A stretch of DNA of 60,769 nucleotides, the filler included, from Hausera hauseri (lineage: Eukaryota): assembly GCA_046269625.1 (NCBI GenBank). It is 10 parts of 10 records of this genome, joined end to end, with 100 filler letters (N's around TTAATTAATTAA, not from the genome) between each part and the next. Parts side by side here need not be neighbours in the genome. Positions count along the whole stretch, not along the records: positions 47,714 to 51,758 come from JBJURY010796646.1; 9 more parts are not named here. One strand, written 5' to 3'. Below, one piece after another: positions 10,917 through 57,596 of this stretch; position 1 is the first letter of the stretch, and every line of letters begins with the position of its first letter. The notes beneath the pieces are model-generated. The model was not told the DNA's origin, searched no databases, and saw only the letters and a list, made by a program, of their open reading frames with translations. The position numbers and the translations under genes were made by a program.

Positions 10917-12764
10917 TTAGCGATTTTCTTCATAGGACTTGAGCATTTTTCCGAAGGGCGTGATAATTTCAGTCAAAATTTTGCAGGAAAACCTTGTTAG
11001 TGTGAATATTTTGTAGGCGTTGATGATGGCTTGGATCACTTCTTTAATTAGCTGAACTAAAAAATAGATGGCTAAGAATCCCGATGCAGCTTGTCCAAAA
11101 ATTAGACATCTTCCCCAAATCTTATACAATATTTCTAAAGTTACTCCTTGATAGTGATTAGCACCAAGTAGCGATTCCCATTTTGCTTGGAAGCGGGTGT
11201 CATCCATAACCACTGACATGGACCGATTCAGTTTATAAGTTCTCTGTCGCGGAAATGCTAAGAATTGCCTAAAGGCTTCTATGTCCTTTGGCCTATAAAT
11301 TCCTTTATTGGCCGTGTCCTCGAACTTCTCTTCAGATAATCCTTTTATTAAATTTGTCCCAGTTAGTTTACTGGGAGTTTTAGCAGCGCCTGCATTTGGT
11401 AAACTTATCCAGTCGATTCCGATACGTCGAAACATAGGTTCGCCTAAGCTCGTTTTGCATGCTTTTAGTATTGTTGGTTCGGTTGAGTTTGCCAGTAATA
11501 CTCTGGTGAGTGGCATCGCTAGTCTCGGAATATTTTCATAGATGACCGGTAATTCTTGCATACATCTTTTCTCTTCTCCGTTAATCGGTACGTCTCTTTT
11601 CTCGCATTCGTAGGTTAATAGGACTTCCCCAGTAACTCGTCCGAAAACACTTTCTTTCATTGGTATAATTGATGATGCCACTTCTGGTTTGGCATAAATT
11701 AAGGCCAGTTTGGTTCTCATGACCTCAGTATCTAATCTGCAGTCATTTGTTATCATTTTATGATATAGCTCCGCTATTTCGGTTTGTCCTTTGTAATAAA
11801 CATAGTCGTCACGATTTTTGAGGTAATCTTCAATACGTATATCCTGCGTTTTCAAATCGTACGTTTTCATGTAAATATCGGTTTCCGCTAAAAAATGCTT
11901 CGTAGTTTGTGGAATACATAACTACATCGCAACATGTTAACATATCCTTTCTAATAAACTTCAATCCGTGTGCGTCCAATATCAATATCGTCGGTATGGG
12001 ATGTTCTATAACATCTTCCCGCAATCTAGTATTTGTGTGTAATTTATTTGTATAACGTTTTCCGGTTGTCTCATTAAACTTTAACTCTTTGATTTTGATG
12101 AAATTGCAATCTCTCTTAGAAGGTGGCTCCATACCTCGACTGAACTTCGAAATGTGCAAGCACCATCATGAATGTGACACTTTGGATTCTTGGTGAATAG
12201 TTTGGTAACACTATAAAACATTGCTTTCAATAATCTCAACTCGGTTTCGTAAAAATCTACGACTGATATTCCTCCTTCCTTTCCTTTTCCGGTGTCATAT
12301 TCTGCTCCAACACAATAACCGGTGTGCATATTTAGTTTTCCGACTGTCACTTTGTAGGCTGTAATGATTTTGACTTCTTGGGCTTCTAACTCCATGCCGT
12401 CCCAAACCATTTTGCCGGTTAGCTGGGCTCCTAAACAGTGTTGTCTATCCACGTTCATGGGGATTAATGGTGTGGTTGGTTTGATAACTGAAGAATGTCC
12501 ATGCATATTGCTACAATGAAAAACGCTGCGGGATCTCCGTATCATGCATTCGGACGCATCCATTGCGATTAATTCACGCTGTTGATATAATATATACCTT
12601 TTTTCTCTTCTTTCGAGCTTATGAGGTCTCACATCTTCGCATTTTTATTAGTTCATTAGAGAATATTTCTGACCCACCTTAAATTTATCACAGTCGTATA
12701 TGGTAACTGTCCCTAACTGCTTTACTAACATCATTATCGTCAGCAAGTTGATTAACAAACTGGA
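10917..12764 (-). pseudogene. Chuvirus (Jingchuvirales)-like envelope glycoprotein (env)
   Basis: Hydrophobic leader LLINLLTIMMLV, then YDC..YSL, CMIRRSRSVFHCSNMHGHSSV, GEVLLTYEC, CMQELPV, PLTRVL, PMF..W, GIY, and C-terminal TM WGRCLIFGQAASGFLAIYFLVQLIK. Broken into 3-4 ORFs. Confidence 0.82.
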
Positions 12765-15700
12765 TTCGTTTCCTTTATTCGGAGAGATATTTCGTATCAC
12801 GTCTTCTAAGTTATTAGTTCCTTTTATCTTGTCCTCTTTTTCAAATAATTTAGTCCATTTTATTTCTTTGGGTACCCTTTTCGCTGCTTTTCTAGCTAAC
12901 AGGATTGTCTTGACAAATTCATTTTCCCGGAGTGGGTTAGTTCTTACTGCTAAATATATCAAGACTTTCCTTAATTCTTCCATCGTATTGTCTGTCATAA
13001 TTCTGTCGATTACCATTTCGTCAGAGAAGGTACTTTTCGATAATTTAAATCGTGGAGTCTTCATTGTCCGGGCTATATTATATATTAACCTTTCCTTCTC
13101 GGATAATATGTCGCCTTGAAGTCCAGTGAAATTGACTATCCTAATTAAATCTTTTATTAGCTCAATTAGTTCTTCGTTATCTAAACTCGCGGTCGGTACT
13201 GATAGTTGTCTCAACTCCTTAATTAGGTCTGCATTATAATCAATTTCTTTTAATTTTCTCGGTCTTCCGACCGGTTGTTTCGGTTTCATCGGAGGTAAGG
13301 TTTCACTTAGAGGAACTAAATTTTTATCGTATTGCGGATTGCAGTTATCAGTCTGTAGATATTCGAAACACATTGCGGAGTCTTGAATCCCCATAATTTT
13401 TCCACATAATGCTCTGTATGTGCCTTTCTCATGGCTTCATTTTTGGTTTGCTCACTAACTATTATTGCTATTATTCGATTTTCTTCTAGCGGTATAATCC
13501 CTACGTCTACTAAGGATTCTGGCTCGTCTAATATCCTACTCCTGAAACAGAGTCGGTAATTGACCCCTTCTCTACCCTCCTTATCCATTATTCGTTGTTT
13601 TGTATCCGCAACGGTGGTGCAGGTAGTGCATGTAAATTCTTCATCGTCCATTCCTTCAGATGGTACCTTTACTTTAATCTCCGCTTCTGCTTTGTTTTTC
13701 AATATTTTAGAGTATTCTCTTATCAGAAGCTTGGGTACTGCGCTGTATGCGGTGTTTTCACTGAACAGCTTGGTCAAAGTTGAAACCAATTTCCTTAATC
13801 TATATTCATTTATGTTTATTTTCAACACACTGCTCAATTCCCTTTCGGCTATTGTGGAATCAAGTATCATTTGTACGTCAAATTGTGTTTTCTGGCTACC
13901 AATAGGTAACTCATAAATTTGTATTGTAGTTCTCTGACTCTGCTCAGTCAAACCTTGGAGATATTCATCCCACTCGGTATTATTATCTGCGTCAGGTAAC
14001 TCGTAGTTCACTAATGCCGCGTGTCCAACCGGGACTCTTTCGCGTAATTCTCTTAACTGTGGTTGAAAGGTTTTCATAATGGATACCCTAAATCCATCTC
14101 CATTTCCGCACGCTTGCTGTATCAAGGTTATTAATTGGCACATTTCTTCCGGTTGTATCAGAGCTTTTTCCTGATAATTGGTCACTTCCGCAATTTTGTC
14201 TCTGCCATTTTCGTGTAAACTCCGTTTTGTCATTAATTTAAGATTTCATAAGGGAATACTTCATCTTATAAACTTCTGTCTTTCTCAGTAATTCGTTTAA
14301 TTCGCGTTGTATTTTCTCGGAGCGTAACCTGGTTTCTTTTACCAGACGTATCCGATTTATTAGTTTTTCGCTACTACCTCGACAATTTCTGCCATCTCTG
14401 TCAATAATAGGAATAATTTGTGCGTTTCATTTTATACTTCGGCGTCCGGATCTACTGCATCCATTAGCCTGCTTATGAACTTAGCTTCAATGCTCGTCAA
14501 CTGAGGATCATTTGTAATTTTTGTTAGTTCAGTATGGCAATGTATGTCAAAGCCTGGTGTCCATTCTGCTGGATTCTGTAAACATTGTAGTGTTTGTGCC
14601 AGATCAATCCGGTGATCATTGCATATTTCTAATGTTTCTATTTCCTGTGCTGAGATTTCTTTCAATGGTTTCTGCATTAGGTTCTGGATCCCTTCTCAAC
14701 GAATGTTCGCTAATTCTCGCTGAAAATCATTTAGTTTGTTTCTTTTTCGGTAAAATTCCTTCTCTTCTACCATACTATATATCCCTGCCAGTGTTGTTTG
14801 CTCTTAATCCTTACTCATAAATTCAAGTCCTCGGAGTGATTTAAATTTAATTCGTAACTTCGCTTCATCTTTCATCGTACCGATATCTAGTAACATTTCC
14901 TCCAATTGGTGCCTCATTATAGGTTTACTCAGAGCGAATTCTGTTAATCGTTCGTTTGTTACTTCTGCTATGGAAGGTAACAAGTCTGCCCACTTCCTTA
15001 ATTGTTTAGATATTGATGGTGTCGCGTAGATTATTTCGTCTAATGTCCTCAAAGCTTTTTTAGTTCATGATCTGGCCCTCGTACAAATTCTATAATATGT
15101 TTCATGTAGTTGAACTCTTCTTTATACTCGTCTAATTTGAGAAGACAAGAAAGTGTTATTCTCTGTACTTCTAGCTTTTCAGAGTGAATTACACTAATCC
15201 TTAAGTCGTTGATTTTGGTTCGTATTTCATTTTCCCTTTTAATGCGTATTTCCAAATCTAGATATTGTCGAGGATTATCCTTTGTCAGGCTGCACATTGC
15301 TATTAAAGAGGGAATATCAATTGGGTCTATACCCAATATTTATAGGTCAGCATTAGTCAGTTCATATACTGGCTTGTTGTGAAGACAAGGATTTATCGTG
15401 TCTTCGATCTCATGTATCAATCCTTCTAAATTACGTCTTGGGCGTTTCAGTTTTGGGTTGCCTTTTAGCGCGTTTAACAGCCCTTGCGCTTAATTAACCT
15501 GATCGAAGAACGTCTCGTTTCTATTCCTTCATACTTTCGTAAAATCAATTCCTCTCTTCGTCCACCATTTTAATTTCTTCTGCCAACATTCTATCAAGTC
15601 TTGGGATGTTTCTTGGAGTTCGCCAGTTGTGGTTTCTTCCCCTTTCGGAAAGCCGATTTTAAGCTTTTTATACAGCTTCTCTATGAATTGTTGTTCTTTT

Positions 15701-17939: not shown

Positions 17940-18719
17940 TGTTACAGTTGGGGTGGCCCTTACCGTCTCCCACTATAACAATGTTTTAACTCAATTTAAT
18001 TGCTGTATCAGCAGGTTAGGACTATTCGTTCTCGAATAGTCTGCTTGTGCCTTAAGATTTTAAGTGAGATTAAACTGTAATGCTGGTACTGCCCGCAATA
18101 ACGATGTATGTCTCAAATTATAATCTCTGGTCTTAACTATATATTTTAAGTAGATTTTGAATCCTAGGGGAGTCAAATCGTCTTTAAGAGACGATGCGAA
18201 ACTACATGAGGATTTTAGAACAGCAAAACAAATAATCACTTTTATTGTTTTTATAGAATAACAACTAACTTTAATCAATCACAAGATAGTCAATGTCCAA
18301 TAAGAATAAATTAGTTATAGCTTGAACGACTCTAAAGTCGTCAATGAACTTCTCTCTTCTGTCGTGTTATGACCTACTTACATAGCAGCAAGGTTTTCAA
18401 TACCATATTGATTTACAATTAACTGCAATTCTTTGTTTATACAACAATTACTTACAAATAAAAATTCAATTTTCTTATGTTTTAGGTTTGTATACTTTTC
18501 TTCAATAATTTATTTTGTTCAAAATTGTCAACTTCTCTAATTGAATAATATTTACAATAGTTTCGCATTAAATTTCTTGTTGGTAATTTCCTCACAATTC
18601 GAAATGTTATGTCAATTTTCTCACAACTTATTGTCCTCTTTAATTACTAAATATGTCCATCAGAATTGTTCTGAAGTGAACTGATCAAAAGAACATTTTC
18701 GGACTTATTAAGAGTAACA
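17940..18719 (-). repeat. 5' LTR (~780 bp, TG...CA)
   Basis: 3' end fixed by the PBS; 5' end inferred from TGTTAC at 18719. Confidence 0.65.
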
Positions 18720-19026: not shown

Positions 19027-19824
19027 TGTCATAGACAGGGTATCGAAAGAAGAAATGTGAGAGAATGTATAGAATGTAAGTGATTGAAATAGAAAATTTA
19101 GAAAATTTATATCGATAAATTATTATAATCAGAATTGGAAATTTATACAAATTGACCTCAAATAATACTGCTCAACAATTAGCGCCTACAGTAATGGCCT
19201 GAAATTGAAATCACTCCGGAATTTACTGTCAAAATTGGAAAACAAACTAATTTAAATCAAATAAATCAAAAATAAATACAATACGAGATTCGTTCGAACA
19301 CCCACGAACCAAGAATGATATAAATACCAGTACGAAAAGTTAAGAATCGAACAGTGCTGAGATTAGTATCAAAATGAACCGAGACAAAATTGATTCAAGA
19401 CTACTGTGGCGAATTGAACTCAGTCATAGAGTCACATTCGTTGCAGTATTTTCAGACGATTATTCTGACCGAATGATTATTTCAGAGGTAGCAAACATGT
19501 GCAGTATTTTAGACTTATTGACGCTGTACGTCGGATAAGTATTCTCTTGTTCTGTTAATAAATAGTTTTCTTTTTAAATTTTCATAGTTTACACTGCCCC
19601 TTAAGAGAGGTTTGAGTAACATTAGGATTAATATCTTACTCAAAATATTTAGATAAGTCGATAATTCATTAACCTGTGCACAGGACCGCACGCAATACAC
19701 GCAAGTTAATTTTCTAGGCAATCGATTAAACGAGAACGTCAATCCCTTCCTACTATTAAATCTTTTAACAGTTTAAGTTATTGTTATAGTTCGGGTGTTG
19801 ATTAGGGTCCACCAAAACATAAAC
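19027..19824 (+). repeat. Probable solo LTR of a related family
   Basis: Shares CACGCA.TACACGCA and TGTTATAGTT.GGTGTTG..TAGGG.CCACC with the LTR at 49655-50410; borders uncertain, no clear TSD. Confidence 0.5.
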
Positions 19825-27401: not shown

Positions 27402-27582
27402 CCGGCCGATTATCGTGTCCATATCACGAACAACCTGCATCATATGTCGCAGATAAGGTTCCCGTGTTCTCCAGTTCTCCTTAGCACGCAGAAGTATCTT
27501 TTCGGAGAACAGTATCGTGCATAATGTAAAGGTCGATCAAGATTGTAAAAGTGACTCCGGAGAACGTTGAACGAGTGATATA
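27402..27582 (+). pseudogene. 3' end of an unknown ORF upstream of pPolB (homolog at ~55630-56070 minus)
   Basis: Conserved ..IKIVKVTPE..RVI* in both copies. Confidence 0.55.
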
Positions 27583-28135
27583 AGTGAATGAGTTCTGTTA
27601 AACGATACATGTCATAATGTTATACCGTAACGAAGCCCATGTATTTATACTGAAATGTAACAAATAAATTATATTGATTCACAAAAAAGTTAGCAAAATT
27701 ATATATGTATTTGTGATTAAATACGGTCAATCAACTTTTTCATTACAATATAAAGCCAAGCAGAAAATACAAGTCCAATGAGGAAATTAATACGTCATGG
27801 TTGTTGCCACTTTCATTTCCACTCATCTTCGATATGTTTTATAGAGACAGATCGGACGAGTAATTCAATATACTCTCGTCTGTTTATTATTCTGGTTTCT
27901 GTCAGTTCACATAGACACTGAACGTCAAACACATATCCAGTCATTATTTCATCTGTTAATTTCCGAATTTTATTCTCAATGTACTCTTCAGTTTAATTTG
28001 TAATATGTAATATGGCTGATATGTTTATACCTGCGTAAAAGAAATAAGTTGGTGTATATCAATTTATTATATAATTTTACTTAATATTAACATTTACTTT
28101 AATTAGTTTTAATTTAGAAATGTAATCAATATCCA

Positions 28136-28792
28136 ATGTATTGCGTATCTCGCATACATGAGGAGGCAGAACAGTGCCATCAACAGATGGCGAAATTTTA
28201 CAGTGTTGGAATGGACACATATCTGTGTCCGACGTGTAATAATATTTCAGCCCAATGTCCGTACCTCGATTTTTATGAGATGCACAAGCATCATCTCGGA
28301 CCGTTTACACGGTCGAAGAAGATGTTGCTAGTGCATTGCCTCATGTACTCAGGGTGCTGTACAAGTAAAGTGTACGACTTTAGTGGTTGTCATAGTGCAA
28401 TGGCGCTATACTATGGCGCCACAACGGTGCACGGTAAACGGGCCTATATTTGTCCCGGTTATTCAATAGTTAATGATGAAATCAACTATGAAGAATTTTA
28501 CAATGAGCGCCAGGACCACTTGAACCAGTTTCACCCGTGGTGCTCCAAAAAACAAATATTAATGGAATCAGCAAAAATCAACAGCATCCCTTCAACAACA
28601 ACAACCAGTAGAAAACGTAAGGCATCAGCAAGTCTGGACAAATACATCAGAACCAGTACCGATCTGCAAGAAGAAGAAGAGCAACAAGAGGATCAGCAGG
28701 AGGAACAGGAAAAGCAGCAGCAAGAGGAACAGATACAACAGGAGCCAGACATTACAGTCAAGTACGATCTGAACAGATCGTACGTTATATAA
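28136..28792 (+). CDS. Cys/His-rich ORF with Q/E-rich tail, directly upstream of pPolB
   Basis: Open 218 aa; homologous remnant (ITVTYDLNRSYV) at 55219-55530 minus. Confidence 0.6.
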   Translation: MYCVSRIHEEAEQCHQQMAKFYSVGMDTYLCPTCNNISAQCPYLDFYEMHKHHLGPFTRSKKMLLVHCLMYSGCCTSKVYDFSGCHSAMALYYGATTVHGKRAYICPGYSIVNDEINYEEFYNERQDHLNQFHPWCSKKQILMESAKINSIPSTTTTSRKRKASASLDKYIRTSTDLQEEEEQQEDQQEEQEKQQQEEQIQQEPDITVKYDLNRSYVI

Positions 28793-28800
28793 AAGCGAAC

Positions 28801-31800
28801 ATGTCCGCGACAACAACAACAACGCAATTGAGTCATGTTCCGCAAAATGTACGCAACTGGTTAGAATCGGAAGTGGACAAATTCCAACATCATCGCTGCA
28901 AAGTGCAGTATTATGCACTTGCAGAATTCGAAAACATTGAAGGTGACAGAAAACAATGGTACCTGCCACATCGAGCTGTGCCATATACCAAGAATTTTAT
29001 CATTGAGATTGGCGAAAAACTCGAGGAGAAAATCGCCAACTGTTTGGAAAAAGGTAGTGGATGGCGAATTATACGAATTGTCACCCTCGGCTTTACAATA
29101 ACAAAGTCGAGTGACATGATTTACTTGTCGGACAGATTATTCATACGGGCACCTGCAGCTCTGAAGCAGTCTCTGGCAGTAATGAATGTAAAAAATACTG
29201 ACAAAGAATACTGTTTAATTTACAGTATTCTGGCTGTGCTAAAATACGACCAAGTGGATAGACATAGTTCATATTGTCCAAATCAGTATCGGCAGTATTT
29301 TTCCGAATTGGACTTTGATGAATGTTGGATGCCGATGAAATTGAAAACCATTCCGACTTTTGAACGATGTAACCGGATGCTGTCAATTAACGTGTTCCTG
29401 TACAACACAGTCGTAGAAATACCGGTAGATAAAGAGATTTACAAGAATCATCATGTGGACGTAATCTATAGAAGTCGGAACCCGAATGGCCGCCCAATAA
29501 ATTTGATACTGTTAGAGAAAAAGGATGGGGAAAAATTCCATTACGTGGCCGTGACAAATTTAGACAGATTGTTGAACATGGAACATGACCAGTTTATCAA
29601 AAAAGAAATACGATGCAAATGGTGTCCTGTATGTCTACACGGCTTCAGATCACAAACAACATGGGAAAAACTTGTGACGTTGTGCAGACAAAATGCAACA
29701 GGAACAACAATGTATGTCATGCCAGTATAAAAGGAGCTGAGGTTCAGTGACTGGTCCAAAACTGACAGTCCGGCATACGTTGTTTATGCTGATATTGAGG
29801 CAATCCTACTACAGCACAACATATATGATCAAAAGCATATTCCAGATGCCGTCGGCATGCTGGTTGTCACAATAAAAGCTGCGGGTCAACTGCAATATTA
29901 CGTTTTTCATGGCTGGAACTGCGTACGCGATTTCATGCATCAGTTGGAAACAATAGTAGAAACGGAAGTCACATCCTGGTACAGTAGAAATAGCAATAAA
30001 CCCTTGATGTGGACAGATGAAGATGAAAGCCTGAAGTTTGCAGCCACCGATGAATGTTACCTGTGCCACAAAATATTACTGTTCAATGCACAGGAACGGC
30101 TCGTACCGGATCACGATCATTTTACCGGTTGATATTTGGGAGCAGCAAACAATTCGTGCAATTTGGCAAGGCGTGTGCGGCCATTCCTGCCGGTGATTTT
30201 TCATAACTTCCGGGTTATTATTGTTACCATATTTTAAAATGGGCCATAAACGAATTTCCGCACTGGTAACTGTCCATTATCCCAACAACAATATAGGAGC
30301 ACCTGTCCCTGTTAGAACACTTAAACCAGTTCCATGTACGGTTTCTTAACTCATTGCAGTTCCTCAATGAGTCATTAAGAAAGCTCATAAGTGCCTTATC
30401 GGATGTGCCGATAACGCTGACGCAGTTCCCTGCGCATATTTCACGCAGCAAAGGCATATTCCAATATGACTTTGCTGGGTCGTACGAGCGACTTCAGAAA
30501 ACAGATGAATTGCCGCCACAATATACCGGAATCACAGAGGACTAGTACCACAGAGCGCAGGAAGCATGGACAGAGTTCGGATGCAGAAACATGTTGGAGT
30601 ACATGCTCCAGTACCTGAAACTGAACGTGTACTTGTTAGTCGATGTGTTTCAGGTATTTCGTGCTAAGGCGGTGGTGGAAGACAGGCTGGAGCCGCTAAA
30701 CTTTACTCCATATTGGAGATGAGTTGGGCATCGGCACTAATGTCGCTGGACAGGGAAATTGAGCTCTTGCAAGACCCGAAAACGTACCGACTATTTAATG
30801 TTGGTATTCGTGGTAGCATGAGATTTGTCAACAAGCATCACGTAACCAGCGATGGCGATGATACAACGTCAATGTTGTACATCGATATTAATAACTTGTA
30901 CGGCTGGGCGCTTTCGCAACCCTTGCCGTACGGTTAATTTGAATGCATAATGGACAAACAAGAACTGAATACTTTGCTGGACAGTCTTCCAGCAGCAGAA
31001 GCAAACACGACAGAAAGCAGCTCAGTTGGATACCTAATGGAGGTGGACCTTTTGGTACCAGATGAGCTGCATGACGCTCTAGACGATTACCCGTGGCACC
31101 AATTAGCCAATGTCCGCCCGACTCAAAAGTAAAGAAACTGCTCATGACGCATGAACTAAAATCGCATTACGTGGTCCATTGGTGTCTACTTCAGTTTTAC
31201 ATGCAGATCTGTGTACGCGTCACACAGCTGCATTGCGCAATTCGCTTCAATCAGGCGCCGATATTCAAGGCATACATTGACGAAAATTTGGAGAAACAAG
31301 CCGCAGCTTGTACAAAGTTCTAAAAGGACTACTACAAGTTGAAAAATAATTCTCTCTACGGCAAAACAGTAGAGAACTTCAAAAAGCGATTCAATGTGAG
31401 CCTATGTAACAACGAAAATAGGCTGGTTATGTACACCAGCAAGGCTCAGTTCAGGCGATCAATGCACATTACCGATAAACTGGTTGCGGTGCTGCTAAAC
31501 CGGGAAGAAGTCGTTCTGGACCGGCCAGTTACATCGAACAAGTAGTATTGAACTTGAGCAAGTTGAGAATGTACTTGGCACGTTACCAGCAAATGTTCGA
31601 CGGCTGTGAGATCAGTATCGTTGCCGGTTACACAGACAGCTTTTTTTGAGCTGAAAAACGTCAATCGTGAACAACTACTGCGGCAAATTATGGCAGATGG
31701 ACTACTGGACACGTCAAATTATCCGCCGAATCATCCGCTGTACAGCAACGTCATCATGAACAAAATCGGCTGCTTCAAGGATGAAAGTGAAGGTCAGGTT

Positions 31801-40353: not shown

Positions 40354-42410
40354 TTACACTTTTGTACAATAATGTCCATATGCGACACTTTTTTTCGATA
40401 TCCAGTGTCGTTTGTCGTCGAATGGATCTAGCGCTTTCTTTTTTATACTGATCGTCATCAGTTGATGGTTTTTGGTGCCAATCCGTTCTTGATCGACAAT
40501 TGTCCCACATCCATTCTCATACGCTTGCAAGTAGTTATCAAAGTGCAAATCGGTTTGTTTCAGATTGATACCCTTGCATTTGAGCACTGGTTTGGTTTGG
40601 GTTTTGAGGGCATACGATTTTGGTCTTAGGAAAATGGCTTCTTCGTATTTTGCACTACCCTTACTTTCATCCTTAAATTTTTTAATTACCGAAGCGAAAC
40701 GGGTAGAATAAAGAGGGTCTGTAGTGTCATAGTTAGAAGTGTCCAACTGCTCATTTACTATCATTGCCGGTAAGAGCTGAGATCGCAGACCTACACTACG
40801 ACACTCAAGAAAGAAACTATCAGTATCACCAGCAACAATATTAAGTTCACAATTGAACTGATGTCTGTATGATTCTAACCCTATGTATTTCAATTCATAC
40901 ATTCTCAACTTGGAAAGATCAAGTACAGCCTGGCCGATGTATGATGGTCTGTCTAATATCACAATGTCTTTGTCAAGGAGAACAGCAACAAAATCATAGT
41001 CAATTATAATACTCTCTTTAAACTGGGCATTACTAGCATATGTCACAAAATTTTTAGCATTGTTACATAGTCTCAAGTTGGACCATTTTAAGAGGTTTTC
41101 GACTGTCTTACCATATAATCTATTGTTCTTGAGCTTAAAGAAGTCTTTTTCAAAAGGATTTTTCGCTGCAGCCCTCTTAGCAGTGTTTAGATCAATGTAA
41201 TCCTTAAAGACATAGCCTTTTGTCAAACTCAACAGCCCGATGAACCTTTTCAACTATAAGGCCTAAATCTATGTACAATTGTAAGAGGCAATAATGAACC
41301 ACATAGTTTGACTTCCGCTCATGAGTAAGAAGCAATTTCTTAACTTTTGAACCTGGTGGACATTGGTTCATTTTGGTTAGAGGCAGTTTGTCAAACTTAT
41401 CATGTTTGTCTGCTGGAATGCTTAAGTCAACTTCAAAGACCAAACCTCGTTTTTCTTTAACACAGTCAATGTAAGGTAATTGTTGGATCAGACTAGCCAA
41501 GACGTCCTCATCATAAATCCAAGTCAGATTCGCAAATGGCAAAAGTTGAGATAAAGCCCAGCCATATAAGTTATTTACATCTATATACAAAGGACTGGTG
41601 CTTTCATCTGTTACAGTCCTATGCTTATTTACAAAAGTAATGCCACTGCGAATACTTGACTAAAAGAAGTGATGCATCTCAGGATCCTGGATAAGCTCGA
41701 TCTTGCAAGGACTGGTTTCCAATGCTATGGCCCAACGTAAACCTGTAATTGAGACAAAGTTAGCAGCCTCTAAACCATCTTGCAACTTAACCTCCTTTCT
41801 GAATCTTTCAAAGACATCATACAACAATTAGACGTCAAGCTTTATATATATCAACATATAATCTAACAGACAGTTGCAACTGTATTTGGACCAAACCAAT
41901 TATGATTCTTCGTAATCACTGTCGCTAACATCATTCCATTTTGCTGGTAAGTCGTTAATTGACTGCAATTCACTAAAAGATTTGGCTGCAGTATATGGGA
42001 AAATCCCTTTTTCCTTAATTATGTCAGAAGGGAAGGCTGACTAAGTCAATGGGTAGTTATCTAAGTTTGAAGCTAAAGTCTTAAGTGAAGCTGGCAAAAA
42101 TTGCAATGAGTCGAGAAATCGAATAAACACAGACTTTTTACCAGAACATTGTATATTTGCCCTCATGGTTAGAAATTTCTTTGTCGTTTGTGGAATCACA
42201 CTCAAGTCCCAATTTTTGAATTTACTTACTGCATGTTTTAAGATATGATGGAGATCATAGCCACACAAATTATGGAAAATTACAGGTAAATTATATCTAA
42301 TATTACGAGCCAAGTTACACTTGTTGCATGCAGGGCCTAAGAATTTATCTGAAACATGACAGTGATCTCTAACAAATTGAAAACTGGTTTCATGACAAAG
42401 GTAACATTCT
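40354..42410 (-). pseudogene. Protein-primed family B DNA polymerase, diverged subfamily, 5'-truncated
   Basis: VIFHNL.GYD, FLDSLQF, YIDVNNLYGWAL, KLKNNRLYGKT, AGDTDSFF, LRPKSY, FDDKR. Confidence 0.92.
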
Positions 42411-42852: not shown

Positions 42853-43407
42853 TTAGAGATTAGTATTAAACTCAACGAATGCATTATGCATTCTTGCTAG
42901 CAAGGAATGTAGTAATTTTGCCAATGATACATTATCTGCACCATATTCATCTTCTGTTGTTAGAAATCTTCGAAAGACTTCGTCATCTCTAGCTTTTCTA
43001 CCTTTCAACTGATAAAGTTTCGTCGTTCCTTTTGGTCTGCCACGGTTTTTTTTATCTGTTTGCATTTGTTCTGATATAGGCATATTCACTCCCGTTTCTA
43101 TTTTTTGAGCTTCATGCTGATGTTCAGTTTTCTGTATCTCTTTTCGCCTAACATCAGTGACAATTTCGTCAATTATTTCTTGTTCAGACTGTTTATAAGT
43201 AATACACACAGGATTGTATCGATTTTCCCAGATACCTACTTCATACAAGGTTTCGTATTCCAGCAGAGTGCGTCCATAGAAACGCAACTCTATTTTTCCT
43301 CGAGGCTGGATAATCCCATTGATATTATTTTTCAATGTCATTATCTTATCCAACGACTTCATTCTTAGAACATGAAAATCTTGGTTGTACTGTTGCAGCG
43401 TAACCAT
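42853..43407 (-). CDS. Accessory ORF fragment with ubiquitin-like domain (43195-43410) and AT-hook (43030-43044)
   Basis: DKIMTLKNNI..IELRFYGRTLLEYETLYEVGI; NRGRPKG. Confidence 0.7.
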   Translation of the reverse strand: MVTLQQYNQDFHVLRMKSLDKIMTLKNNINGIIQPRGKIELRFYGRTLLEYETLYEVGIWENRYNPVCITYKQSEQEIIDEIVTDVRRKEIQKTEHQHEAQKIETGVNMPISEQMQTDKKNRGRPKGTTKLYQLKGRKARDDEVFRRFLTTEDEYGADNVSLAKLLHSLLARMHNAFVEFNTNL

Positions 43408-44033
43408 TACTTCAGGGTCTTCTCCTAGTGTCCTTACTCTACCCGCATATCGATAAATTATATACCGTACGATGTTCTAGTATGTGCTTGTACGCGCAGA
43501 ATATATTAGCAGTAAATCCAGTAAATTAGCAAATTGTTGATGGCTAAATGTTGGCAATAGTAGCATAGACAGATCTTGTCTAAACCGAGTGCCATCGATT
43601 AGTTCTTGGTTAACATAGCTAGATATTTTCCAAACTATTTCTACGCCATCCTGATTTAAATTTACAGATGAAGACTCATAACTTGGGGATTTTTCTTTTA
43701 TTTTCTTTTTTCTGATCCTTTTTATCTTTTCTTTGGGTTCACTTTCTCCACTTGACTCACTTTTTTCACTTCCACTTCCAGAAGGTAAGTTAAGTTCCAG
43801 AGTCTTTAGTTCTTCTTTTTGTATCAAAGGTTTATCCTTCTTCTTAACCCTTTTTTCTCAGTATCCGATTCTCATACGGGAGTTTTTTTGGGTCTACCAA
43901 TAGGAGAAATAACTGAACTTTTATCATTTATTTTTTGTCTTTTCTCACAGGTTTGTTGCTCCTTTAATTCCAGGTATAGCTGTTTTAATTTGGTTAACTT
44001 ATCTTTCTCCTCTGTCGTATTGGTTTTACTTTC

Positions 44034-45915: not shown

Positions 45916-46656
45916 CTAGAATAGATTATTAAAATCAGTGGCAGAGAGCGGTTGATTGATAGTTGATTGGTTAAAGATAGGTGTTCCAGAGGTAACAGGT
46001 GTTTTAGAGGTCTCACCAATGTCCATCGATTCGCATTTGGAATTATTTGTCAAAGCCATCATCAAAAATTGTTCATTATGGAGTAAGATTTCGTTTACGG
46101 TTGATGTTGATTGGTCTGATTGAGATTGATTGGGTAGTTTTTGGAGATTTCCTTTTTCGATTTTATATTCGTTGATAGAGTTATAAATCTTCAGTATTGT
46201 TGCAGCTTTCTCCATGGTACGTAGAGTGTACACAATATTGTTAAATTTCATTAGGACTTGCTTATGGATCAATGTTTTCTCTGAATTTATTTCTGGATGA
46301 TATAATAGATCCTTAATTCCTAGTATTGCATTGGTATCAAAAAGGTCGAGGTGTAGGTTTGTGTTATAAATATCAATTCGAACTATCATCTTCCCATTAA
46401 GCTCTTTTCTAATAAGGGATCTAATTTGATAGGCATCTGTCCGTCCGGTTAAATCTATTTCTTTCAATCCGGTAATCAAGCTGTTATAATTGTCAATTCG
46501 GTCACGCGGAGTAACAAGTTTGTCCAAAATAATATTGCCTTCAAGATCCGTAATGGTTAATTCTACAAGGGTTGCCTCCTTATTGCGTAATGAGGTTAGG
46601 AGGAAGGCAAAATTCGTTGCTAGTATAACTATCTGATTTTTTGATCTTAGCGGCAA
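45916..46656 (-). CDS. 3' accessory ORF fragment with a REX4/ISG20-like DEDDh exonuclease fold (probably catalytically altered)
   Basis: LVELTITDLEGNIILDKLVTPRDRIDNYNSLITGL...LNGKMIV; the ExoI DxE motif is not evident (ILATNF). Confidence 0.65.
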   Translation of the reverse strand: MPLRSKNQIVILATNFAFLLTSLRNKEATLVELTITDLEGNIILDKLVTPRDRIDNYNSLITGLKEIDLTGRTDAYQIRSLIRKELNGKMIVRIDIYNTNLHLDLFDTNAILGIKDLLYHPEINSEKTLIHKQVLMKFNNIVYTLRTMEKAATILKIYNSINEYKIEKGNLQKLPNQSQSDQSTSTVNEILLHNEQFLMMALTNNSKCESMDIGETSKTPVTSGTPIFNQSTINQPLSATDFNNLF

Positions 46657-47793
46657 TCTGAAAAAGGATGTTCCGGCTGTGAGCTGATCACCATTGGATA
46701 AATTTGGGGGATTATCGTCTTTTCACACTTGATCTGAGGGAAGGTTTCTCTTCGCGTGACTTCAATGTATATTATCCGAGATGGGCCTCCACAAGTTCGT
46801 AGAATGATTGTCACATTTCGATAAAACTTCTTATCCAAGCGAATCGTAGTATAATCTATGACATCCAAAGTGTCGGTAAAATCATTTAGATGTGCTCGAC
46901 TTTTTACTTGAAGATTGCCTTTTGCTGCAGATATAAAGACTGACATAGTTCGACTGGAAATGCCGATTAAACCTGACAATTTTGTAGAAGCGTTAGGTAG
47001 CTTCATAATCAGTCCGGCTCTTTGATGGAGGAGATGACCTTTTAATTGTTTGGTATGTGATTTGCTTTACCGTAATAGACATAATCTTTATTGTCTGTTT
47101 GATTCAGATTGCTGTAATAAAAAGATTTAGTTCTGTCCACAACTTCAAATCCTTCTTGAACTAAAAAGAAATAAACACATGTTAACCAAGAAGATTTGAG
47201 AAAAGGAATACGAATNNNNNNNNNNACTCTTATTCAGTTTATAATTTTTGTAAGTCGCGAGAAATTTAGTATATTGGTTCTGTATCTTTGTACAGTAATA
47301 CACAGTTACATCTCTTGCTCGACAATCTTGTCGTTTACTTGTTCGATTTTTACTACTGAGAGGAGTTAATGGACAATCTTGCTATTCAGGATTAGTCGGC
47401 TTCTTAGCCGATGGTTTCTTTCTTGACGGACAATTTTGCCGTTTAGAGGTTTGTAGAATTTCATTATTAGGCGCATTTATATTCCCTGTTAACTCACCTT
47501 GTGAGTCTTTTCTTAAAAGTCTTAATTGATTTAACATTTCTCTTATTCTACGTTGCCGCCGTTTTATTTTTGACCAATAGATCGTTAAAGGCAACACTAT
47601 GGCTAGTAATATTNNNNNNNNNNNNNNNNNNNNNNNNNNNNNNNNNNNNNNNNNNNNTTAATTAATTAANNNNNNNNNNNNNNNNNNNNNNNNNNNNNNN
47701 NNNNNNNNNNNNNACGTGGCGAAGCTAGGTAATGAAGCCGCTACCACCGTTATTATATGTACAGAAACCATCTGAAGATGAGATAGAACAAAA

Positions 47794-49662
47794 TGGCTAA
47801 TCTTACAGATTAGTCCCAGATGGCCGAAATACTCGGATACTAGCCGTAAACTATAGAGAAAAGAATGTGGGATTGTATTTCCCGATCGAGGTGTCCATCA
47901 GGAATACTAATGGAGATGATATTATGAATAAAATAATCGCACCTTGGGCTAGGATAAAAGATACCTTCGCCGACGTTACTGGAATCACCAAGCCGCAGCT
48001 TGAAAAGGGAAAAGATTTTTTGGAGGTCTAAGAAGATATAAGCCATTGCTTATATGGATATATTGTTACAGGATTTTGAGTACACGAAGCGTTGGAGCGA
48101 CTAGGAATTAGGCAGGAATATATAGCCGGAATTCGAGAAGTGAACCGTAACCCAGCAGTCGTGTGTCAAGTTGATACTTCGATGCGGAAAAGAGGTTTCC
48201 TACTTCCGTCAGCATCTCGCGAATCACAATTCAGACTGATGCTAGAAGCCATGTATGGCGAACGATTCAAATTCCCTAAGCTGACGACAGCAAATCAAAG
48301 GACCAAATTTATAAAAGATATCTATGACTCGTTACGATGAGACCACGAGTGAAAAACCAAAATTCATATGCAAAACGCAATATCCGACAATAACCCCAAA
48401 ATCCTGATACAAAAATTCCAAAAACGGTTTAGCGAATATCCTAGTTATCGACAAATCAAACCACGAGGACATAACCGATTTCGAGTAACAATCCATAACA
48501 GCCCAATAGAAGTCCGGAACAACCAACAGAAACCATCAACCAGTAAAGCCCAAGGAGTGACAATAAAAGACGATAATTTAGAGAAACCGAAGAGGCAAAA
48601 GCAAAGACCTCCTTTTTGGATTAAATCAATAAAAAGAGAAGCAAGACCAGCAAAGGCCCTGTGACAGATAATCTAATCCCGGAAGAACCCATGAACGATC
48701 AGAAAGAAATACCAAATCGCGAGAAAAGGAAAGAAAATGGAGAAAAACAGTTGGAAATTACTAAATCTAAATCACTTAAGACGGAGGTCAACGTTCTTCG
48801 GAAAAACTGGCAAGAGGATACCCCGATCATAGTTACAGAATTCGGCCAGGTGAAAGAATATAAAATAATCTTTGTTATGGCCGAGTACTATAGCAAAGGA
48901 AAAATTATAGAGGCCATATTTTACGTGTCCACTGTTTTTAGAAGGATAGTCAGTGGAAATGGATATGACAAAGTAGATACTACGATCGGCAGATATCTAG
49001 CCCCGATATTTCAGTCGAAAAGTAGTACTAATAGATTGACAATTCCAGTGGATACCCAAGTTAGAGTTAAATTAAAAAGGCAATACAAAAAGACTGGAAT
49101 ACCCGATCTGGACAGGCAAAAGGTAGTAGAATAAACCCTAGTCTCGGTTTCAGATGATCCAAAGAAAAGCTCAATAGACCCCAAACAAAAACGATTATAC
49201 GGATACTTATACCAAGATAAAAAGTGACTGGTATTCGAGAGAATAGAAGTAGATGAAAACCTTGTAGACATAGAGGCAGCGGAGAAAGATGAATGTCCCG
49301 TATGCGACGCGGATCTCTACCAAGGATATGTAATATTGGACAACAAAGATTGCAGTTATAAATATTGCCGATACTGTTTGGAAACGTGGACCCTGAAAAA
49401 TGGAAAAACTACCTGCCCAGTATGCAGAGCCGAAGCTACAAGGCCAAGATACTACTCGAATGGAGAGAACAAGAAAATAGTAGAGATATTGCCCAAACAG
49501 GCCACTACGTCCTATCATATTGACTTGCAATCACCGTCAAACAAAACGGATTCGGAAGAGGACTTACGTGGACGAATGGACAGATTACGCAGAGTACGCG
49601 GCACCTCTACTGACGCAATGGGCACATCCGAGAGTGCCGTTCAGGGAGGAGAAATGTTATGA
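47794..49662 (+). pseudogene. Retroelement 3' accessory ORF (decayed) ending in a RING finger (49294-49425)
   Basis: 48661-49662 is one frame with two stops; CPVC-x16-CSY-KYCRYC-..W..-CPVCR; 5' extent approximate. Confidence 0.72.
49643..49654 (+). promoter_or_regulatory. Polypurine tract AGGGAGGAGAAA
   Basis: Purine run immediately before TGTTA. Confidence 0.8.
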
Positions 49663-50410
49663 AATGGCCGTTACAGAGAATAATTGAAAATGGAAACCGA
49701 AACCAAAACTGAAACCAAACCAATATTACATAGAAAAATCAATTTGAAAATTAGAATAATGTAAATAGTGTAGAACGGAAGCTGAACAACAATGGTTTAA
49801 TCATAATCAGTTTAATTGTATGGCCAAATTACGAAATATCCGGCGATAAATAATTGTAAATAAACTAGGATTATTGAAAATGATTTAATTGAAATGAGAA
49901 ACGGTTGTAAATAAACGGATCTCTACGACCATATAAGTCGATGTACAGAGACAGTAGTTGTCATTGTTAATCAGTCAGTATTCTACCAAATTCAGTCAGC
50001 ATTATTCAGAGGGTCCAAGATACCGAAAGACTTGACGATTTGTTTTCGAATCATTTACTTATTAATCGAAGCTTACTTGTGTTGCTGAACTGACATTCTC
50101 GTTATTGGTACGGTATAGTTATTGCTGTTAAATAAATTTTGTTGTATCTTAAAATCTACTATAGTTTTCCGTCACTCCTTACGAAGGACTTGCACCGCAC
50201 TAAGTTTTAAAATCGTTTTAAAAAGTTATAGTTAAGTTGAGGATTTTTTAATTTACGCAATCACTGCACGCAGTACACGCATCATAAAATAGTGCAAACA
50301 TTCTAACGTGAACGCTAGAACTTATCTGCTTAAATAATATTATCTCAAACTCGAATTTTACTCACTGTTATAGTTGGGTGTTGGATAGGGCCCACCTTCA
50401 ACTGCTAACA
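49655..50410 (+). repeat. 3' LTR (756 bp, TGTTA...TAACA)
   Basis: Inverted TGTTA/TAACA termini, upstream PPT, and a terminal motif shared with the other LTRs here. Confidence 0.82.
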
Positions 50411-50479
50411 TTATTAAATAATGTTTGGATCTTAAATTTCTTTGAATCCTATTATTATTGCAACAACCGTGGGGAAACT

Positions 50480-51090
50480 TTTCTGGGATACGGTGCACTT
50501 TCTAGTGCACTTGTGGTACTCCTTTACTCTTCACTACCACCAACTTGTACTTCCTTATCTTACATTTGTTTTTTCTTTGCAAGCTGCTGCATATTATCCG
50601 CCTGTGTCTCCTTGAACTGTCTCTATTTCTTTTTGTGCTTTTCCTAGAGGCTGCTGGACAAGTTTTCATTGTTTTAACACAGGCGAAATATTACTTTCGC
50701 CTGCTGTTCCACTTTGGCTCTCAGTCCTTCAGCAAAATATCTTTGTTCCTCATGTGCCTTTGAGATTGGGCCAGCTGTTCTTTCAATTTGCTCATTTCAA
50801 CGAAATCCTCAGTTGGCCGCGGCTTTGCCTGTATTTTGAATTTCTTGTCGAGGTTCACGTGGAACTGCGAATCTTTTGTATTGTCTAACATCATTATCTC
50901 AATTGATGTTTCGGCTTTCATCTTTGGATTGACATACTTTTTCGTAGGTCATATTCCTTTTGACATTTTCTTTTGTTTTTGTCCGTAATGGAAATACGCT
51001 CTTGCGTACTGCTGCAATTTCAACAGCCTTTATTAATTCTTCCAATCGACACTTCGCTATCCGACGCTGAATGGTTTCCTGCAAACAAGT
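50480..51090 (-). pseudogene. Unidentified decayed K/E-rich coding remnant
   Basis: Overlapping ORFs 50721-51084 with coding-like composition; no recognisable motif. Confidence 0.3.
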
Positions 51091-51681
51091 AGAAGTGAGC
51101 TATCCATCTCACTTCCCAAAAAGTGCCGAGATCGGCTTGGGACCAAGTTTTCTCCACCTATCTCGCAATTCTGAACATTTTATGTTTTGCAGTCGGAGAC
51201 CACCACCAGCCGGAAGCACATGTCATATGTCGCACATGTCGCCGGCGGAAATCGGTAGAGCTCAATAAGGCGAGAAAAATTTTACAGCGCGGCGAAAGTC
51301 CAAAATTTTACTGTACGGCGCTAGAAGCAAAATAAACAAAACAGGAAATATTTTATGAGAAACAATGCACGAGTTACGAATTGCGCAGTGTTCGGTGCAA
51401 ATGTCAAATCAGTGTCGAGAAATCGAATGACTACAATGTCAACGTTGTCTGACCATGGGAACAAGGAAAAAATAAATGGGGATAATTCAAACTCTAAAAA
51501 TTTCCCGTTGTCAAGTCTGCTGGTTGTGGAAATGGGTTGAGCACGTAGAACATCAGTAGTTGAGTATTTCCTATTATAGCAGCCTCACGATCAAACCAAT
51601 GGATACCGGTGAAGCATGTATCGAAATGGAACGAAAAGCATTGATAAAAGTCAAAATCATCTTCATCATCCTCGTTCTTTA

Positions 51682-51758
51682 GTTCGTTCGTTCGTTCGTT
51701 CGTTCGTTCGTTCGTTCGTTCGTTTGTTTGTTCGTTCGTTCGTTCGTTCGTTCGTTCG
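51682..51758. repeat. (GTTC)n tetranucleotide microsatellite
   Basis: Direct tandem repeat at the contig end. Confidence 0.97.
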
Positions 51759-53220: not shown

Positions 53221-53570
53221 TAATAATAATGATTAGACATTAACCAAATATCAAACAAAAATCACGAATTGATTGATATTGCATATATCCTTTGAAAAGC
53301 GAAAACTATTTATTTACCAAATTAAAATTGACAATCAACTTGGCATTGGAGTATCTAAACAACTGTCTTAATATATACAGATCGCCTATTGGGTGAATGT
53401 GGGCACCACAGTCGGACCCTACTATCGATCCCACGCGGTCATAGCAGACGCTCGGCCGTGCCCGAACAAAATGGACCAAAGGGCACCTGCCGCCATGGGC
53501 ACCACTACTGCGCTCTGTGATATTCTTCTTCTGTGATACCGGGCCATTGCGGTGATAATCCCTCTGTCGT

Positions 53571-55250
53571 CTAAAGCCGGTCGTGCGATATTGCAAAGTC
53601 ATACGAGAATATACCTTTGCTACGAGCAATATGTGTGGGGAACTGAGTCAATGTTAGCGGCAGATTTGGCAAGGCATTTACCATCTTTGCCAGAGATTCA
53701 TTGACAAATTGCAATGAATCAAGGAAGCGTGCCTGGAACCGGTTAATACGAGCAGACAGTGTCAGGTATTTCTCCATCGTAGTCGGAATTATGGATAGTT
53801 CCTTGTGTGGAAATCCGTTTATGGCCGATTTTAAAATATGGTGACAATCAACCCCGGAAGTTATGAAAAATCACCGGCAGGAATGGCAGCACAAACCTTG
53901 CCAAATTGCATGGATTGCATGCTGCTCCGAGATATCGTCCGATAAAATGGACGTAATTCGATACGAGCCGTTCTAATGCATAAAACGGTAATATTTCGTG
54001 GCTCAGGCAACATTCATCTGTGACTGCAAACGTCAGGCATTCACTTTATCTATCCACATCAAAAGTTTATTGCTATTTCTACTGTACAAGGATGCGATTT
54101 TTTTCTTTACTATAATTTCCAACTGCTGCAGAAAATTACGTACACAGTTCCAACCATGGAAAACGTAATACTACGGTTATCCGGCGATTTTTGTTGGTAC
54201 TAGCAACATACCCACAGCAGTTGGAATGTGCTTTTGATAGTATACATTGTGTCGTGGTAGAACGGCTTCAATATCGGCATACATCACATATACCGGGCTG
54301 TCCGTTTTTGATCAGTCACTGAATTTCAAACTTCTTTTTGACTGGCATAACATACATTGTGGTTCCTGAAGAAGTTTGCCTGTACAGAGATACGTGCTTT
54401 TCCCATCCCTCATTTGACCGGAATCCATGCAGACACACGGGACACCATTTGCAGCTTATACGCTTTTTGATGAACTGGTCATGGTCCATGTTCAACGATC
54501 TGTCCAAATTGGTCACGGCCGTGTAGTGAAACTTTTTATCGTTCTCCAATAGCAACAAATTTACTAGGTGTCCAACTGGATTTCGACTGCGGTAAATTAT
54601 GTCCTAGGTAAATTATGTCCTACACCGGTACCTCTACAATTGTGTTGAACCGGAACACGTAGACTGCCAGTGTCGGATTACGCCGTTCAAAAGCCGGAAT
54701 GGTTTTGAGTTTTATCGGCATCTAACACTCGTCGTAGTCTAATTCTGAGAAATACTTACTGTACTGTTTTGGACAATTTGCATGATGTCTGGACACTTGA
54801 TCATATTTCACTATGACCAGAATGCTGTAAATAAAGCAATATTCTTCGTTAGTGTTTTGTACATTCACTACCACCAGAGACTGCATTAAGGATACAGGTG
54901 TCGGTATGAATGAACGTCTGGACAGGTAAATCATGTCACTCGTCTTGGTCAGAATAAAGCCGAGAGTGACAATCTTTACAATTCGCGAACCACTGTCCTT
55001 TTCGGTGTAGTTGGCGAATTTTTCGTCAAGATTTTGGCCTAGATAGGCAATAAAATCCTCAGAATATGGTACGGCTTAATGTGACAGGTACCATTGTTTC
55101 CTGTCACCCCGCAGATTTTCAAATTCTGCAAGTGCATAATATAGCACTTTGCAGTGGTGTTGTTGAAATTTTGCCATCTCTGATTTCAACCAGTTACGCA
55201 CATTAGCAGGTACATCCTTCAATTGTGTTGCTGTTTTCGCCGACAGGTCA
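53571..55250 (-). pseudogene. pPolB N-terminal half, close paralog of 28801-30500; polymerase domain deleted
   Basis: NMDHDQFIKK..CKWCPVCLHGFRS, FLDSLQF, KGIFSYDF. Confidence 0.9.
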
Positions 55251-56806
55251 CCTTTATGTCCACGTACGATCTGTTCAGGTCGTACGTGACAGTAATGGGA
55301 GGTTTACGTTCCTGCTGCTGATGCTGACTTCTGTTGTTTTGAAAGTGTTCCTTAAGGCTTGCTAATTCTTGACGTTTCTTGCTGCTGCTTCTTACTGCGT
55401 CCATTAATATTTCCTTTTTCGATCTCTGAAACTAATTTAAGTTGTCTTTGTGGTTGATGTAGAATTGTTTACAGTTGACTTGTGTCTCAACTATATAACA
55501 ACCGGTGCATACATAGGCCCGTTTACTACATCTTTTGTTGTTGTTGTTGTTGTTACATTTCAGTATAAATACTTGTGCTTTTTTACGGTATGACATTACT
55601 ACATGTCCCATCTAACAGAACTCATTCGTTTATATCACTCGTTTGAAGGTCTCCGGAGTCACCTTTACAATCTTGATCAACCTTTACATGATGCACGATA
55701 CTTTTCTCCCGAAGCGATACTCCGGCGTGCTGATGAGAATTGGAGGGTACGAGAACCTTATTAACGACATATGAAGCAGCTTGTTGGTGTCATTGATATG
55801 ATATTCGATCAGTTGTTTCGAACCTATCGGAAATTGGCGTTATTACTATGCGGTGGATGGCAATCCATGTCAAATACGGTTTGTGGAAGAGTTTGTCAAA
55901 GGTGATTACATTCCAATGTGGCAGTCAGCAAATCGGATTTGTTTCAAGCAACATTGCAATGTAACTAATTCCGATGGACTCGTTCTTTCTCCTGCTGAAT
56001 TGATTAATGCGTGTGGTTTGTGTGGTGTTGATGGTGGTGCTCCAATTTTATCAATATTGGAGAATCTGGTTTAGTTGTACTACATAAATAGAAAAAAGTT
56101 TGATATGGACTTGATTGAGCTTCCGTAAGTCAAACAACATGAACATTATGCAAATAAAGATGTAGTCATTTGACCAATTTAATTGACAACAAAACAAAAA
56201 TGATCATGGGTAAAGTTACATAAAAGCAGATAATAATCAGTAATTCTACAACACACACAGAGAGGAAGGGTCGATTGTTTTGATGCGACAGAATATTTAA
56301 ATACAATTATCGATCGTTAATGTCTATTTAGAGACTTTGAGGATTACTCTATGTGCACTATGTACGAAAGTGTATTGATTTTCTATTTGGTTTTACTTTA
56401 AAAAGACCATTGTTTCTGGCCATTGATCGATATACAAATAACTTTAATCTATCTGTGAAGTACATATATATTACATTGTGTGCCATACATCTTATCATTG
56501 TCCGACCATTCAATTCGTCGATTAACTTAAGTGTTTGTGTGTGTCCGTGTGCTAGCAATCTGTCACGTTATGTTTCATTTCTTCATTGTCAACACACACA
56601 CACACTTCATCGCTGAGCGAATAAATCTTGAGACAATAATGTGACAATCAGTCTCCTTGTGAATAATAGCAGTAGTAGTACTCAATTAGGAGCTCGTCGT
56701 CGTCGTNNNNNNNNNNNNNNNNNNNNNNNNNNNNNNNNNNNNNNNNNNNNTTAATTAATTAANNNNNNNNNNNNNNNNNNNNNNNNNNNNNNNNNNNNNN
56801 NNNNNN

Positions 56807-57081
56807 CAATATAATTTTTCATCGTCCCTTAAGGACGATTTGCACTACACTAAGGGTAAAATCTTACTTAAATTCTGTAGCTAGGTTGAGAGAATCTAAC
56901 TTAAGACACGCAGTTTTATTGCACGCAGTACCGGAATCAAAAATTAATTTCTTTTTTATAAACCTTAAGGCACAATCAGATTATTCGAGAACGAGTAATC
57001 CTAACCTACTCATAGAGCGAATCTAAATTGGAATTAATATTGTTATAGTGGGAGAATGTAAGGGCCACCCTAACTATAACA
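56807..57081 (+). repeat. 3' part of an LTR with no PBS following
   Basis: Ends TGTTATAGTGGGAGA..TAAGGGCCACCCTAACTATAACA, nearly the same as the 17940 LTR end. Confidence 0.75.
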
Positions 57082-57083
57082 AC

Positions 57084-57596
57084 TGTATATAAATGTCAAT
57101 AATGCTAATAAAACGAGAATCAAGTTCAATAATAAAGCTCATGGAAAACTATATATACCCAAGAAAAACTGGTCCAAGTCAGAACAGCATTTCAGAGTAA
57201 ACGAAGGAGAATAAACCGGAATTTTTCAACTTGCAAAGAGAGACTAACATTAATTGATTCCTGTTTTATTCGAGTGACGAATCTGTATACGTTGTGTTAT
57301 TAAAGGGTATATTTGATTTCGTTGTTTTTAAATTCCATATAGTTTTCCCATCGCATCTTAAAAGCGATTTGACGACTTTAGGAGTAAAATATTTACTTAA
57401 ACTACATAGTTAAGAGGAGAAATTGGTAACGTGACGCAAGCACCTACATTCAGTACACGCAAGAGTTCTAAAGAAATTAACTATAAGTAAAGCACAAACA
57501 GTCTATTCCATAATGATGGACCGTACCTGCATAAAAATCGATTTAAACATTGTTATATAGAGGTAGATTGCGTAAAGGCCACCCCAATATATAACA
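57084..57596 (+). repeat. 5' LTR of a paralogous giant Gypsy copy
   Basis: Ends ATAACA before the PBS; 5' border uncertain. Confidence 0.65.

Follow-up and report, generated by a model that had tools for sequence, protein, structure and literature searches.

In a 60,769-nucleotide stretch of Hausera hauseri DNA (hereafter designated the window; ten contigs joined by spacers), we found that the RING-finger ORF on contig 8 (47714-51758) also encodes a DEDDh-like domain of the DnaQ/ISG20/RNase T type, which the sequence-only reading had missed. The ORF is a decayed 3′ accessory gene that belongs to an LTR retrotransposon present in many copies. Its intact protein is best regarded, tentatively and with somewhat less than even confidence, as one that would bind RNA or RNPs and ubiquitinate host defence proteins there. 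Contig 8 carries the following features.

47714..49662, plus strand: decayed accessory ORF, delimited by tblastn and blastp to the homologue P0003; the 5′ end is cut by the contig edge
47822..48349, plus strand: DEDDh-type exonuclease-like domain without the ExoI and ExoII acidic residues
48350..48864, plus strand: basic low-complexity linker holding the frame change (identity drop, match gap, and composition of P0003 421-597)
48865..49260, plus strand: conserved domain that matches no known family (about residues 598-740 of P0003; 27-60% identity per 30-residue block)
49294-49425, plus strand: RING-HC finger, C-x2-C-x16-C-x-Y-x2-C-x2-C-x11-C-x2-C
49643-49654, plus strand: polypurine tract (PPT) of 12 purines, read through by the ORF
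49655-50410, plus strand: 3′ LTR of 756 nt, TG...CA, with no primer site after it
50411..51013, no strand: low-copy flank after the LTR (depth in run X1; one 749-nt contig without differences)

The decay noted by the sequence-only reading, which had given an ORF of about 600 codons, stands: the coding stretch is split over two frames, the switch falling somewhere from about 48600 to 48700, and its aligned part contains seven internal stops (at 47798, 48029, 48077, 48338, 48350, 49132, and 49225). The extent does not, the ORF being larger and starting beyond the contig edge; the ATG at 47794, where the range given in that reading begins, opens a frame that closes after six codons. Alignment to P0003 covers residues 211-870 (211-495 at 36% and 537-870 at 43% identity) and begins at the contig edge, so that about 210 residues are absent from the window. 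As had been claimed, the ORF reads through the PPT into the LTR, within which its stop codon (49660-49662) lies, and a PPT directly before a TG...CA LTR is the arrangement expected at the 3′ end of an LTR retrotransposon.

An intact homologue was found by a HMMER search with the C-terminal frame against 1.84 billion representatives. Only one of the 92 matches fell below 1e-10, namely P0003 (E 4e-72), and the remaining 91 were centred on the RING, leaving P0003 as the only full-length match. P0003 is a stop-free protein of 870 aa, encoded on one 16,242-bp contig and forming a cluster of one, and its C-terminal 8 residues are the peptide encoded by the PPT and LTR start of contig 8. A Pfam scan of P0003 revealed no integrase or other pol domain, which suggests that the pseudonuclease-RING gene is likely a separate ORF. 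Word-indexed homologue searches returned nothing with the two window frames and only P0003 itself with P0003 as the query; since P0003 was missed although it fits their length range, these blanks carry little weight. No related loci were found in the metagenome, viral, or prokaryote collections. In the N-terminal part of P0003, an oxygenase-like barrel considered at one stage had no Pfam match, and comparison of this part with the ORF upstream on contig 7 scored 15.7, below the shuffled maximum of 22.5.

The RING-HC pattern with Tyr replacing His, as originally read, was confirmed at the listed position, where zf-RING_2 scored 32.1 bits against a cut-off of 27.3 and zf-C3HC4 scored 19.2, below its cut-off of 21. 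The ligands on contig 8 are seven Cys residues with Tyr as the fourth ligand, a position occupied by His in 89 of the 91 proteins bearing the RING pattern. The check proposed there, whether other copies retain the His, comes out positive for the intact relative, P0003 having all eight C3HC4 ligands including the canonical His (zf-C3HC4, 30.8 bits against 21); in the genomic copies of run X1, the position lies outside the differences listed. Identity between contig 8 and P0003 reaches 53-70% in the RING block, as compared with 18-37% at the linker ends and in the tail. RING fingers contact E2 enzymes through a hydrophobic residue after the first Cys, a helix Trp, a Pro, and an Arg that follows the last Cys; the contig-8 RING and P0003 both retain the corresponding Val, Trp, Pro, and Arg. 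The P0003-type RING has these contact residues, from which E2 binding and ligase activity appear likely.

The DEDDh-like domain was assigned from several concordant matches. Residues 246-345 of P0003 matched DnaQ and PolC exonucleases in a PDB sequence search, and a two-sequence profile (A1) gave six PDB matches, five of them DEDDh enzymes (DnaQ, ISG20L2, PolC, SDN1, and ISG20; best E 0.0015). Further matches were to PHROG 192 (E 1e-4), four NCBIfam DnaQ/PolC models (E 0.004-0.011), and a plasmid 3′-5′ exonuclease (E 0.06). In the Atlas, the first match was RNase_T (0.93; 169 shared features, one short of the number usual for true members, 170), with 21 of 30 matches in the RNase_T set, and the second was an arenavirus nucleoprotein cluster (0.91). 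These matches are individually weak, all below curated cut-offs, and cover mainly the first 90-100 residues of the domain, and Pfam RNase_T found no match in P0003, but their concordance argues for homology to the DnaQ/RNase T fold, as judged from sequence profiles, the predicted structures (pLDDT 31 and 39) being unusable. For the conserved domain at P0003 598-740, there was no Pfam or PDB match and no usable Atlas match.

A conserved ExoI D-x-E or ExoII Asp is absent or unconserved in P0003, the contig-8 copy, and the contig-7 ORF described below. The loss of the acidic residues is not a matter of decay, because the intact P0003 also lacks them. Around ExoIII (H-x4-D), the C-terminal part of the domain aligns unreliably, and no His/Asp pair is conserved between the two homologues; an H-x4-D string in P0003, considered as ExoIII, stands at the wrong position and is absent from the contig-8 copy. 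In Maelstrom-type proteins, loss of the DEDD residues need not mean loss of all nuclease activity.

In the preferred reading, the body upstream would be a Ty3/gypsy element of gag-env(gB)-pol order, as LTR homology and the primer site suggest, and the accessory protein would be translated as a separate ORF. Its nuclease-like domain may bind RNA or decoy the partners of host nucleases, by analogy to inactive DEDD proteins, and the RING would recruit a host E2, leading to ubiquitination of whatever is bound; that the targets are host defence factors is the weakest step. A more specific version is possible but doubtful: a disarmed host-type antiviral exonuclease fold would guide the RING of a dedicated, RNA-directed ubiquitin ligase carried by enveloped gag-env-pol retroelements of an invertebrate, such that small-RNA or RNA-decay defence factors are degraded, in a parasite-side mirror of PML.

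The pseudonuclease-RING gene is a variant of known LTR accessory ORFs. Juno and Vesta, LTR retrotransposons of bdelloid rotifers, carry a DEDDy ORF3 with intact catalytic residues (PMC5408684), which, according to the portion of that source used here, likewise places a DnaQ-superfamily exonuclease domain in an additional ORF that comes after pol and before the 3′ LTR. However, their ORF3 is RNase D-like, intact (DEED), and described there without a RING, whereas the domain of contig 8 and P0003 is RNase T/ISG20-like, has lost its acidic residues, and is fused to a RING; its DEDDh-type matches and lost residues set it apart from the rotifer DEDDy ORF3. The same portion reports that inactive DEDD derivatives retain RNA binding (PMC5408684). 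Maelstrom and EXD1, as far as the partial accounts go, also use an inactive DEDD fold for RNA binding, but are host proteins. No LTR-borne pseudonuclease-RING ORF was found in the literature searched, a scope that excludes Repbase and Dfam entries.

A second LTR family, on contig 7, holds a pseudonuclease in the same slot.

45916..46722, minus strand: divergent, RING-less DEDDh-like pseudonuclease ORF that takes the 3′ slot of this second family
45748-45735, minus strand: purine tract, followed by an LTR (45734-45080), then a primer site (45078) and gag

P0003 finds the contig-7 domain at E 1e-6, and the contig-7 ORF is ISG20-like. The order of pseudonuclease ORF, PPT, LTR, primer site, and gag is probably a head-to-tail tandem junction. 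Its LTR is unrelated to that of contig 8 (z -0.1), and its gag region shows 76% identity over 319 nt to the contig-1 element, which has a gB-type env before the protease. If contig 7 is indeed such a tandem, a 3′ pseudonuclease cargo, though not the RING version, would be physically tied to a gag-env-pol lineage. Since this family has the pseudonuclease without a RING, the RING is presumably not needed for the core function of the slot. Upstream of this second pseudonuclease ORF, a transmembrane-like segment followed by a basic stretch was noted (47388-47612, minus strand).

These observations also bear on a rival explanation, serious although on the doubtful side, in which the protein serves the element's own RNA or particle cycle (export, localisation, packaging, or budding). 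The pseudonuclease would then hold on to genomic RNA, and the RING would modify Gag or factors involved in trafficking. The same anatomy would fit, and Cer1 of C. elegans has an accessory protein needed for genomic RNA export, as stated in the part of PMC10309623 consulted. Retention of the pseudonuclease without the RING in the contig-7 family points in the same direction. Against it, viral RING proteins usually act on host factors.

The sequence-only reading had further linked the RING ORF to the Ubl/env element, here located on contig 2, while calling the link unproven, and proposed that it would form a mobile ubiquitin toolkit with the ubiquitin-like domain (Ubl) encoded there.

17940..18719, minus strand: 5′ LTR of the gag-Ubl-env-pol element, with a primer site at about 17937-17920
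13472..13678, minus strand: internal ubiquitin-like domain of this element, without a di-glycine
10917..12644, minus strand: gB-type (Monjiviricetes fusion) env of this element, upstream of protease and RT

The RT of this element is closest to Ty3. The contig-8 LTR is homologous to its 5′ LTR (432 of 634 aligned bases, 68%; z 11.2 against 100 shuffles); with this one included, four of the five other LTR stretches compared are homologous to it (z 8.0-12.1, 66-68% identity under lenient gap scoring). The LTR relationship behind the earlier claim is thus borne out; the terminal motif is shared only with variable spacing, at three places, and gave no match at fixed spacing with up to three mismatches. 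A contig from run X2 that matches the contig-8 LTR end (21 differences in about 150 nt) reads on into the primer site that contigs 2 and 10 use; dispersed multiple copies (X1) and a related LTR followed by a primer site (X2) are what a retrotransposon leaves. The primer site resembles Arg-type tRNA ends and is also used by annelid, collembolan, and rotifer elements; because unrelated elements use it, the site is weak evidence and was rejected as a family marker. The combination of LTR end and primer site had no match in viral contigs.

Joint action of the RING ORF and the Ubl within one element is, on this evidence, unlikely. It would be favoured by the LTR homology, by the recurrence of this primer site behind a related LTR in X2, and by the length of the P0003 contig (16,242 bp), close to the size expected for a gag-Ubl-env-pol-ORF element. 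However, an LTR identity of 68% is that of a different family rather than of near-identical LTRs, the primer site is shared too widely, and no DNA in the window joins the RING ORF to pol or to the Ubl, the two lying on separate contigs and contig 8 beginning inside the ORF. Ubiquitin-type conjugation needs a di-glycine; by this established chemistry, the contig-2 Ubl, being internal and without a di-glycine, could presumably not be conjugated like ubiquitin. As its score (16.5 bits) is also below the Pfam cut-off (25.4), the step to a ubiquitin toolkit complete in itself is not warranted. For a contig-7 ORF that resembled a Ubl (42856-43476), the resemblance was likewise not supported, and the description of the 3′ slot as vacated by env is an assumption about history. 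Collectively, it may be concluded, at the level of the clade only, that the RING element and the contig-2 Ubl/env element appear to be sister families and not one element.

Other LTR elements were seen in the window. At about 19025-19815 (plus strand, contig 2) lies an LTR related to that of the RING element (66%, z 10.7); no PPT was seen ahead of it, its orientation is opposite to that of the Ubl/env 5′ LTR, and it is probably a solo LTR. At 56807-57596 (plus strand, contig 10), two LTR ends stand in tandem (57081 and 57596), and a primer site and gag come after the second alone. A further element of gag-env(gB)-protease-RT type, also decayed, occupies about 4600-7869 (plus strand, contig 1); it is inserted behind a host gene region that, as read by eye, contains introns and is SNF2/Domino-like.

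The nearest described relatives of these bodies lack the 3′ gene, as far as their accounts extend. The AIR1 domain label usually matches CCHC knuckles. In the giant gypsy-like planarian element Burro/GYPSM1, a Ubl and then a mononegavirus-like env stand between gag and pol, as in the contig-2 element, and interference with host ubiquitination has already been proposed (PMC6431247). In the part of that source used, its extra domains are in the polyprotein or upstream, its 'RING' is an AIR1 label, and no 3′ pseudonuclease-RING ORF is described; conversely, no BIR, MATH, BCL2, or ankyrin domain was found in the contig-2 ORFs scanned, which cover part of the stretches. Errantiviruses of GAG-ENV-POL order with an HSV/gB-type env are known from Nematoda, Bryozoa, and Platyhelminthes (PMC13524379) and resemble contigs 1 and 2 in gene order and env type, the LTRs of the contig-2 element, which is of this type, being related to the LTR of the contig-8 RING element. 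The available text of the survey discusses no accessory 3′ ORF, the words 'exonuclease', 'accessory', and 'ubiquitin' each having no occurrence in it (PMC13524379).

RING and DEDDh modules also occur in other genetic parasites and in hosts. ICP0, IE2, and PE38, to which the sequence-only reading had pointed, are viral RING E3 ligases; the likeness lies in the use of a RING-HC finger by a genetic parasite, and no specific homology was shown. The arenavirus NP similarly carries a DEDDh domain in a genetic parasite but, in the part of PMC7968707 used, is an active nuclease not fused to a RING, again with no specific homology shown. PML, in the PML/Plex9 comparison, combines a RING and a DEDDh domain in one protein (PMC10123124, in part), but is there a host gene restricting retroelements, whereas the combination found here is element-borne with the RING at the C-terminus. 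From this precedent, the ORF might be a self-limiting or host-protective module restraining its own or competing retroelements, as PML and PML-like DEDDh proteins restrict L1, partly via the proteasome (PMC10123124, same portion). We consider this very unlikely, since the gene is multicopy, tied to a PPT and LTR in two homologues, and without a fixed host locus, its domain order and flanking domains are unlike those of PML, and the searches gave no sequence link to PML.

The copy status of the ORF was examined in run X1, in which 6,319 contig pieces aligned to contig 8 at at least 80% likeness; their summed depth should not be read as a copy number, and the window may itself derive from X1. 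Across the 15 bins of the ORF (47714-49693), this depth ranged from 602 to 22,303. Three bins in the 5′ part of the LTR had 27-69, the end of the LTR was again high, and four bins of the flank (50486-51013) had 27-102. The depth was also high in the last flank bins (51014-51650), which belong to another repeat; the last part of this flank repeat (51014-51758), where the contig stops, is a (GTTC)n microsatellite. Up to 58 X1 contigs differ from the contig-8 copy at one place, among the 40 of 891 differences listed. At the stop at 48029, 99% of the X1 depth (57 contigs) reads otherwise, and this stop is therefore private to the contig-8 copy; the other internal stops and the RING His position are outside the 40 listed. 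Among the X1 copies, the ORF is better conserved than the 5′ part of the LTR; this is compatible with selection without being a measure of it. Nor is selection measured by the codon positions (14/7/9) of the 30 ORF differences with the best support, which reflect the decay of the contig-8 copy.

Because many diverged copies exist in public contigs, the RING ORF is element cargo and not an adjacent host pseudogene, in agreement with the original claim and with the PPT/LTR peptide at the end of P0003. That the ORF is instead a host mRNA taken up by the element, or a neighbouring host pseudogene, and travels as a functionless passenger has a parallel on contig 3 in host-gene pieces beside an RT, but is highly improbable, as no host-type full-length homologue was found among the 1.84 billion representatives, the sole homologue ends on that peptide and has an open 870-aa frame, the Cys residues are conserved across 57% divergence, and the DNA is better conserved among copies than the LTR 5′ part.

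The window contigs carry fragments of several retroelements together with animal host genes. On contig 3 (24869-26908, minus strand), adjoining alpha-amylase C-terminal, Ints3 HEAT, and ABC-transporter pieces lie directly upstream of the RT and look like a stacked host-mRNA capture. Two contigs share about 2.3 kb at 70-83% identity (27407-30560 and 53508-55807), and a DNA polymerase B match was found at 40354-41250; these are possibly Polinton-like.

In two LTR families of the window, the pseudonuclease occupies the same 3′ slot, which points to an accessory function common to the whole lineage. If the counter-defence reading is true, the gene would have been built stepwise, the pseudonuclease first and the RING later in one branch, and with the RNA-targeted ligase a Metaviridae lineage would possess a counter-defence gene of the Vif/ICP0 kind. 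Counter-defence proteins are known for few animal LTR elements, and the conserved pseudonuclease-RING fusion is a concrete, testable candidate: P0003 is an intact natural protein, and its RING and its nuclease-like domain lend themselves to separate assays.
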